Assembly (NCBI RefSeq): GCF_003334815.1
Contig: NZ_QOWO01000005.1
DNA from: Escherichia coli
Lineage (GTDB): Bacteria > Pseudomonadota > Gammaproteobacteria > Enterobacterales > Enterobacteriaceae
Strand: one strand, 5' to 3'
DNA length: 64,000 nt
Shown: piece after piece, positions 9,481 through 18,012 of the stretch
How positions within the stretch are numbered: position 1 is the stretch's first letter
How the letters are laid out: every line of letters begins with the position of its first letter
Made by a program: the position numbers and the translations under genes
The notes under the pieces: model-generated
What the model saw: only the letters and a program-made list of their open reading frames with translations
The model's database searches: none
Told to the model about the DNA's origin: nothing

Positions 9481-9834
9481 AAATCATACTGCCTGTGGAT
9501 GTGGTGTTGTAACGTTAAATTTTTGTGCCAATCCCTGGGGATGATACAGCGGTATATTTAAACAATTTTAGCGGGAAATACTCCCAACCAGGCGCGGCGA
9601 AGAATAGTTTTTCGATTTACCGCGTTAATGCAGTCAGTATGACAGCACCTGAAGCGCAATTTAAACGCTTATAACGTTTTAAAGCAAGGAGGGATCTAAA
9701 AACCAGAGGTATATAGCGATAAGAAATCACCAACCAGTATAAAACACTATTTCCGTGAAAAAGACATGGCTAATCATGCGAACAAAAAATCACCAACCGT
9801 TGTAAAATCTAACGCCCGTATTTTGACTGCAAAG

Positions 9835-9860
9835 AAAATAAGCCAGCATCGACTGGCTTA
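9835..9860 (-). terminator. Putative phoR terminator hairpin
   Basis: agccag-catcga-ctggct inverted repeat immediately 3' of the phoR stop, T-rich on the minus strand. Confidence 0.45.
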
Positions 9861-9886
9861 TGGCAATAAAAGATGACAAAGGCGGA

Positions 9887-17809: not shown

Positions 17810-18012
17810 TATTGCCGGATGCGGCGTGAACGCCTTATCCGCCCTACGCGGTTCTGGCACATTTTGCAGGCCTGATAAGACGCGGCAAGCGTCGCATCAG
17901 GCATCGGAGCACTTATTGCCGGATGCGGCGTGAACGCCTTATCCGGCCTACGGTTCTGGCACCTTTTGTAGGCCTGATAAGACGCGGCAAGCGTCGCATC
18001 AGGCATGATGCG
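17810..18012. repeat. REP/BIME cluster (tandem palindromic units)
   Basis: Two copies of gccggatgcggcgtgaacgccttatccg[g]cctac...aggcctgataagacgcggcaagcgtcgcatcaggca. Confidence 0.85.

Follow-up and report, generated by a model that had tools for sequence, protein, structure and literature searches.

The DNA analysed here is a 64-kb stretch (64,000 nt; "the window") of Escherichia coli, in which phoB (11929-11240), phoR (11182-9887), brnQ (9480-8161) and proY (8088-6712) all lie on the minus strand. The product of brnQ (LIV-II) is a major branched-chain amino-acid carrier and, to our knowledge, the transcriptional control of the gene has never been dissected at the base-pair level. The spacer between phoR and brnQ comprises 406 nt (9481-9886); of 5426 complete E. 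coli genomes, 5425 contain it, each in a single copy and with no less than 95% identity. No annotation falls within this spacer, including in the curated MG1655 record, and no Rfam match was found in it, the sole hit being a chance tmRNA fragment (E=0.4). At its distal end, the hairpin of the phoR intrinsic terminator (9838-9861, minus strand) bounds the brnQ regulatory region on its upstream side. For comparison, 80 brnQ loci from Enterobacteriaceae (a set in which Salmonella is absent) were taken, and the spacer alignment comprised 69 sequences. In most genera of the family the spacer measures approximately 405 to 412 nt, despite a high sequence turnover in parts of it; at six loci it was longer (1147, 628, 573, 566, 487 and 482 nt).

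Kim et al. 2012 (PMC3415461, supplement) placed the transcription start site (TSS) of brnQ at 418,645 (NC_000913.2), with 54 reads and a 5'UTR of 170 nt, and the same dataset (PMC3415461) gives a TSS for K. pneumoniae brnQ at the homologous promoter, with a UTR of 179 nt; the start positions thus come from one study and two species. The published string from -50 to +1 maps to positions 9700-9650 of the window, so that +1 corresponds to 9650 on the minus strand. Upstream of it, a sigma-70 promoter (9650-9687, minus strand) can be read, with a -35 hexamer TTGCTT (9687-9682), an 18-nt spacer and a -10 hexamer TAAATT (9663-9658). This promoter is weak; a sigma-70 promoter scan of the sequence returned nothing at its threshold, and the promoter was placed from the published TSS. 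A GATC (Dam site) is found at 9693-9696 on the minus strand (-46 to -43), within TAGATCCC and between the -35 hexamer and the Lrp-like site at -61 described below, and shows essentially no variation among the 69 spacers.

The 170-nt 5'UTR (9481-9650, minus strand) contains several near-invariant blocks. Just upstream of the brnQ Shine-Dalgarno sequence and ATG, a CA-rich tract, ACAACACCACATCCACA (9494-9510, minus strand), is invariant in the Enterobacteriaceae sampled and fits the C/A-rich targets of region R1 of GcvB; brnQ is listed among the R1 targets of GcvB, verified in Salmonella and conserved in E. coli (PMC9299463). Farther upstream, at about 9591-9624 (minus strand, approximately +27 to +60), the arms GCGYGG and CCRCGC surround an invariant TAAATCGAAAAACTATTCTTCG. 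One pair of this stem alternates between U-A and C-G (28 versus 11 sequences), 77.6% of the cells are paired, and the covariation score was reached by none of 500 shuffles, a modest signal that one or two evolutionary events might suffice to produce. The element could be a leader RNA hairpin or a DNA palindrome, and a conserved Lrp-like 15-mer, at +43, lies in its loop. A global conserved RNA structure of the 5'UTR was unsupported (RNAalifold, -0.27 kcal/mol).

The direct repeat from which this study started lies exactly where the sequence-only reading had placed it. The promoter-proximal copy 1 occupies 9724-9745 and reads aaatcaccaaccagtataaaac (GTTTTATACTGGTTGGTGATTT in the brnQ sense), and the promoter-distal copy 2 occupies 9787-9809 and reads aaatcaccaaccgttgtaaaatc (GATTTTACAACGGTTGGTGATTT in the brnQ sense), both being assigned to the minus strand, like the gene. 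The repeat search paired 9721-9744 with 9784-9807, with 20 of 24 positions identical and a start-to-start spacing of 63 bp, which is 6.0 helical turns, in agreement with the near identity and the distance of roughly six turns first reported. The two copies share an exact 12-nt core, AAATCACCAACC (GGTTGGTGATTT in the brnQ sense), located on the minus strand at 9724-9735 in copy 1 and at 9787-9798 in copy 2. With +1 at 9650, copy 1 covers -74 to -95 and copy 2 covers -137 to -159; the copies are therefore upstream promoter DNA, and not part of the brnQ leader in which they had been supposed to lie.

The position of the TSS also weighs on a coding interpretation, according to which the repeats would flank or end a small open reading frame, MISHVFFTEIVFYTGW (9777-9727, minus strand), acting as a brnQ leader peptide, with the GGTGA of copy 2 as a Shine-Dalgarno-like sequence and the TGA of copy 1 as the stop codon. 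The frame is initiated by ATG, its 16 codons are rich in Ile, Val and Phe, and some of the substitutions within Escherichia look synonymous or conservative. However, it lies wholly upstream of the mapped TSS in both E. coli and Klebsiella, it varies between 7 and 38 codons in length across genera, and in several of them its start is ATT or ACG; moreover, no terminator or antiterminator follows it, no Rfam leader matches it, and it is unannotated in MG1655. We regard such a peptide as extremely improbable. Attenuation by an amino-acid leader of the ilvL or leuL type was rejected on the same grounds, given that the frame is outside the transcript and no terminator-like site comes after it.

Sites of NtrC take the form of a dyad, TGCACC-N3-GGTGCA, and the CACCA/TGGTG contained in the cores raised the question whether the cores are half-sites of an NtrC-type enhancer for a sigma-54 promoter of brnQ. 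A gSELEX peak for RpoN plus NtrC does fall in the phoR-brnQ spacer, at 418,832 in the old coordinates (PMC8743547), and a TGGCAC-N5-TTTAA element occurs at 9515-9530 on the minus strand, approximately 60 bp from that peak. The peak, however, is situated some 300 bp downstream of the repeats, close to the start codon of brnQ and beside this element, in which the -12 GC is missing and which other genera preserve poorly. The cores are arranged as direct repeats and not as dyads, do not show the NtrC form, and are not conserved. There is thus very little chance that the repeat belongs to an NtrC-dependent enhancer.

To judge how unusual the repeat is, dinucleotide-preserving shuffles of the 406-nt spacer were scored for their best 24-nt window. 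A match of at least 20/24 was reached in none of 1000 and none of 3000 shuffles (<0.0004), at least 19/24 in 0.2% and at least 17/24 in 18% of them, and an exact 12-mer repeat arose in 0.9%. Within the 64-kb window the degenerate repeat pattern occurs twice (two matches were obtained in 0 of 100 shuffles), and a search for a third copy of the motif with up to two mismatches found none. The other local repeats of such quality in the window are all REP/BIME elements: the clusters at 17869-17948, 49017-49094 and 51124-51300 carry exact direct repeats of 37 to 50 nt with a spacing of about 100 to 102 bp, and the three match Rfam naRNA4 (RF02564), being ordinary repetitive extragenic palindromes of E. 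coli. The brnQ repeat, for its part, is found at one place per genome in the 5425 E. coli genomes, at variance with a dispersed repeat family (REP/BIME, ERIC or MITEs).

This departure from randomness, together with the spacing of exactly 63 bp, speaks for the original proposal, namely that the two copies, including the core ATCACCAACC, are paired sites for one sequence-specific regulator, six turns apart and bound cooperatively; the lack of any other copy of the motif in the 64-kb window speaks against it. A genome contains approximately 3000 intergenic regions by our estimate, and at probabilities of about 0.0003 to 0.002 a few repeats of such quality are expected genome-wide by chance, so that non-randomness in shuffles alone is no proof of function. 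The same expectation favours the opposite view, that of a purely neutral coincidence in which neither copy overlaps a functional protein-binding site, and in which AT-rich DNA upstream of a promoter has produced by chance both the Lrp-like matches presented below and their phasing.

Conservation was uneven along the spacer. The majority frequency over the 69 species averaged 0.75 for the whole spacer and reached 0.91 in the promoter and 0.90 in a 25-nt block lying between the copies, whereas the core of copy 1, with 0.53, was the lowest of the upstream region. Among the five Escherichia species, whose spacers are 92% identical, variable columns amount to 9 of 24 in the cores and to 20 of 126 in the rest of the upstream region (Fisher p=0.022), with 0 of 15 in the 15-mer centred at -92 and 1 of 25 in the block at -124. 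The 12-mer core varies in all four of the other Escherichia species, the very outcome that had been named as telling against the proposal, and it is absent from approximately 65 other Enterobacteriaceae spacers. Even within E. coli the core is polymorphic, since at window position 9797 K-12 carries A in place of G, which leaves an exact match of 10 nt and 19/24 overall, and further single-nucleotide polymorphisms affect the core of copy 2 in other E. coli lineages. Both copies are therefore not kept where the gene and its promoter are kept; the check across the family, suggested at the outset, returned a core with no counterpart in other genera next to a promoter and neighbouring blocks that are conserved. 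A pair of operators is hard to reconcile with a core that is variable or absent in relatives although spacer length and the neighbouring elements persist.

The comparison across genera also argues against the idea that a regulatory module of 63 bp was long ago duplicated in tandem and that the repeat is what is left of it. The head-to-tail arrangement, the 63-bp period and a weak in-register CCGT match beyond the repeat would fit such an origin, but the similarity is limited to about 24 to 27 of the 63 nt. Furthermore, the two homologous positions agree at 20/24 in this allele, at 17/24 in the sister Escherichia species and at 8 to 15/24, which is background, in every other genus; their similarity rises towards E. 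coli instead of decaying from an ancestor. An ancient duplication was rejected because the other genera have the same spacer length with a self-similarity of only 8-15/24, and such an origin appears very improbable.

One E. coli strain has lost a period of the repeat. Strain A39 (NZ_CP028737.1), known from its assembled genome alone, has a spacer of 343 nt from which exactly one 63-bp period, homologous to window positions 9735-9797, is missing, and is the only such allele among the 5425 complete genomes. A single 12-mer is left at its junction, ...ATTTTACAAC|GGTTGGTGATTT..., and such a loss of one period, with one 12-mer retained, is what slippage between short direct repeats typically leaves behind. 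Acting as the substrate for this deletion is the one demonstrable consequence of the repeat. A39 resembles other slippage deletions of this class in the exact period lost and the single repeat unit retained, but with one occurrence in 5425 genomes the brnQ spacer is not a high-frequency contingency locus. The deletion removes the invariant block at -124 and keeps the helical phase.

Lrp had been named as a textbook candidate for the regulator binding the repeat. Genomic SELEX by Shimada et al. 2015 (PMC5320599, Table S1) yielded an Lrp peak in the phoR-brnQ spacer at 418,534, that is, at about -111 or window position 9761, centred between the two copies, which favours their being paired sites, in an in vitro assay with a resolution of approximately 100 bp. 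Scoring of the spacer with the 15-bp Lrp consensus YAGHAWATTWTDCTR (quoted in PMC5554404), used as a degenerate consensus and not as a calibrated matrix, gave as the best match in E. coli the 15-mer TAGTGTTTTATACTG (9735-9749, minus strand, 13/15, centre -92). Other matches were the 15-mer at 9704-9718 (minus strand, centre -61, 10/15 in E. coli) and two weak ones, at 9767-9781 (minus-strand feature, within the invariant block, centre -124), where the opposite strand scores 11/15, and at 9800-9814 (CGTTAGATTTTACAA, minus strand, 11/15, centre -157). Taken on its own, the E. coli sequence has matches that are significant neither in number nor in quality when compared to shuffles (P~0.1).

Across the 69 species the picture was different for some of these sites. 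The 15-mer at -61 averages 12.0/15 and reaches at least 11/15 in 90% of the species, and that at -92, which is invariant in Escherichia, averages 11.3 and reaches at least 11/15 in 77%. No other upstream Lrp-like columns are retained as well; -218 (10.6) and -124 (10.4) come next, and the poorly retained -157 site (mean, 9.2) ranks below them. The constant positions are the informative ones of the consensus (A5, T6, A7, T12, C13, T14 and G15 at -61; T1, G3, C13, T14 and R15 at -92), in spite of 38 and 52 distinct sequences at the two sites, and column permutation gave P<0.0005 at both. Intervals of 31, 32 and 33 bp separate the centres at -61, -92, -124 and -157, a periodicity noticed post hoc; the peak at -218 fits the same lattice of approximately 31.4 bp, and a peak at -112 is off-lattice.

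The AT-rich ends of copies 1 and 2 overlap the Lrp-like sites at -92 and -157, respectively, while the exact core of copy 1 falls in the linker between those at -92 and -61. The attribution to Lrp therefore held in part: there is an in vitro peak in the spacer and copy 1 overlaps a 13/15 match, but the cores, which contain G and C, are unlike the AT-rich Lrp motif. Motif comparison also showed that the 15-mers at -92 and -157 are 65 bp apart and not 63, out of register with the repeat, which is consequently not simply two in-register copies of a binding site. Taken with the variability of the core among the sister Escherichia species, its polymorphism within E. coli and its absence elsewhere, this offset leaves the notion of paired operators quite unlikely, even with the precedent of Lrp sites 63 bp apart at gltBDF.

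The near-invariant block TTTTTTGTTCGCATGATTAGCCATG (9765-9789, minus strand, 25 nt, -115 to -139) is located between the copies, with an overlap at the edge of copy 2. No regulator was matched to it. Its conservation exceeds what a typical degenerate Lrp site would show, and the block may be the site of another factor. By eye, against consensus sequences, CRP, IHF, TyrR, PdhR, Fis and NtrC gave nothing convincing and nothing conserved, and these are to be taken as leads only. A bolder proposal, to which we attach a low probability, is that the block is the operator of a regulator of branched-chain amino-acid uptake common to the family, excisable in E. coli by in-phase 63-bp slippage.

As for pure coincidence, it can appeal to the lack of significance of the single-sequence Lrp matches (P~0.1), to the low specificity with which Lrp is known to bind AT-rich DNA, and to the in vitro nature and low resolution of the gSELEX data. 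Against it stand the consensus-compatible bases retained at -61 and -92 despite sequence turnover, the invariance of the -92 site in Escherichia, the regular spacing of 31 to 33 bp, and a spacer length that stays at approximately 405 to 412 nt across genera. On balance, coincidence throughout seems rather unlikely.

The explanation that we favour, and hold to be probable, sees in this region an Lrp-type upstream array of the ordinary kind, serving the brnQ sigma-70 promoter, to which the exact repeat would be largely incidental. The upstream DNA would consist of degenerate Lrp-type sites about three helical turns apart, separated by T-rich linkers, and each copy of the repeat would correspond to the 3' two-thirds of an Lrp-like site (-92 or -157) plus the linker that follows. 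The exact 12-mer would then be linker DNA under little constraint, whose identity in the two copies would have arisen recently in the Escherichia lineage and been completed by a single polymorphic A-to-G change within E. coli. That the exact 12-mer repeat is incidental is most likely on account of the look-elsewhere argument and the lack of conservation, and not of the statistics of this spacer alone.

We infer that the Lrp-like 15-mers are the actual contacts of Lrp, whose oligomers would bind the phased sites cooperatively and bend or wrap approximately 100 to 120 bp of upstream DNA. The wrapped array would in turn modulate RNA polymerase at the weak TTGCTT-18-TAAATT promoter. The direction of the effect cannot be read from the sequence; activation appears somewhat more likely than repression, because all the sites are located upstream of the -35 hexamer and the promoter is weak. 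The accessible literature yielded no report on brnQ expression in lrp mutants, and the Kroner preprint does not mention brnQ.

This proposed architecture has relatives among known Lrp systems. At ilvIH and pap, Lrp binds about six phased sites cooperatively and wraps the DNA, and the brnQ region is similar to them in its putative 15-bp sites, which are degenerate, AT-rich in the middle and bordered by YAG/CTR arms, and which are arrayed on one face of the helix. It differs in that the brnQ sites are known from sequence, in the lack of a Dam/GATC switch architecture, the single conserved GATC being that at -46, and in the near-invariant block at -124, atypical for a degenerate Lrp site. The gltBDF region of E. 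coli has three Lrp sites, with centres at -152, -215 and -246 and spacings of 63 and 31 bp, which act together with IHF (PMC1784095). Both gltBDF and brnQ thus show several Lrp or Lrp-like sites upstream of a sigma-70 promoter with spacings in multiples of three helical turns. Nevertheless, the gltBDF sites have been footprinted, whereas those of brnQ are consensus-like only, under a low-resolution in vitro peak; the brnQ array begins at -61, much nearer to the promoter. The brnQ upstream region yielded no IHF-like site, and an eye-catching exact direct repeat is absent from gltBDF.

The analysis locates on the sequence the mapped promoter, the invariant block and what is plausibly a phased array of Lrp sites, with little reach beyond the annotation of an E. 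coli promoter. Should the block at -124 turn out to be a family-wide operator, its excision, as in A39, would produce heritable variation in brnQ expression. The A39 deletion allele could serve as a ready-made test strain. The conspicuous repeat is not the conserved part of this region: the bases worth mutating are those of the 15-mers at -61 and -92 and of the -124 block, with the repeat cores as the control.
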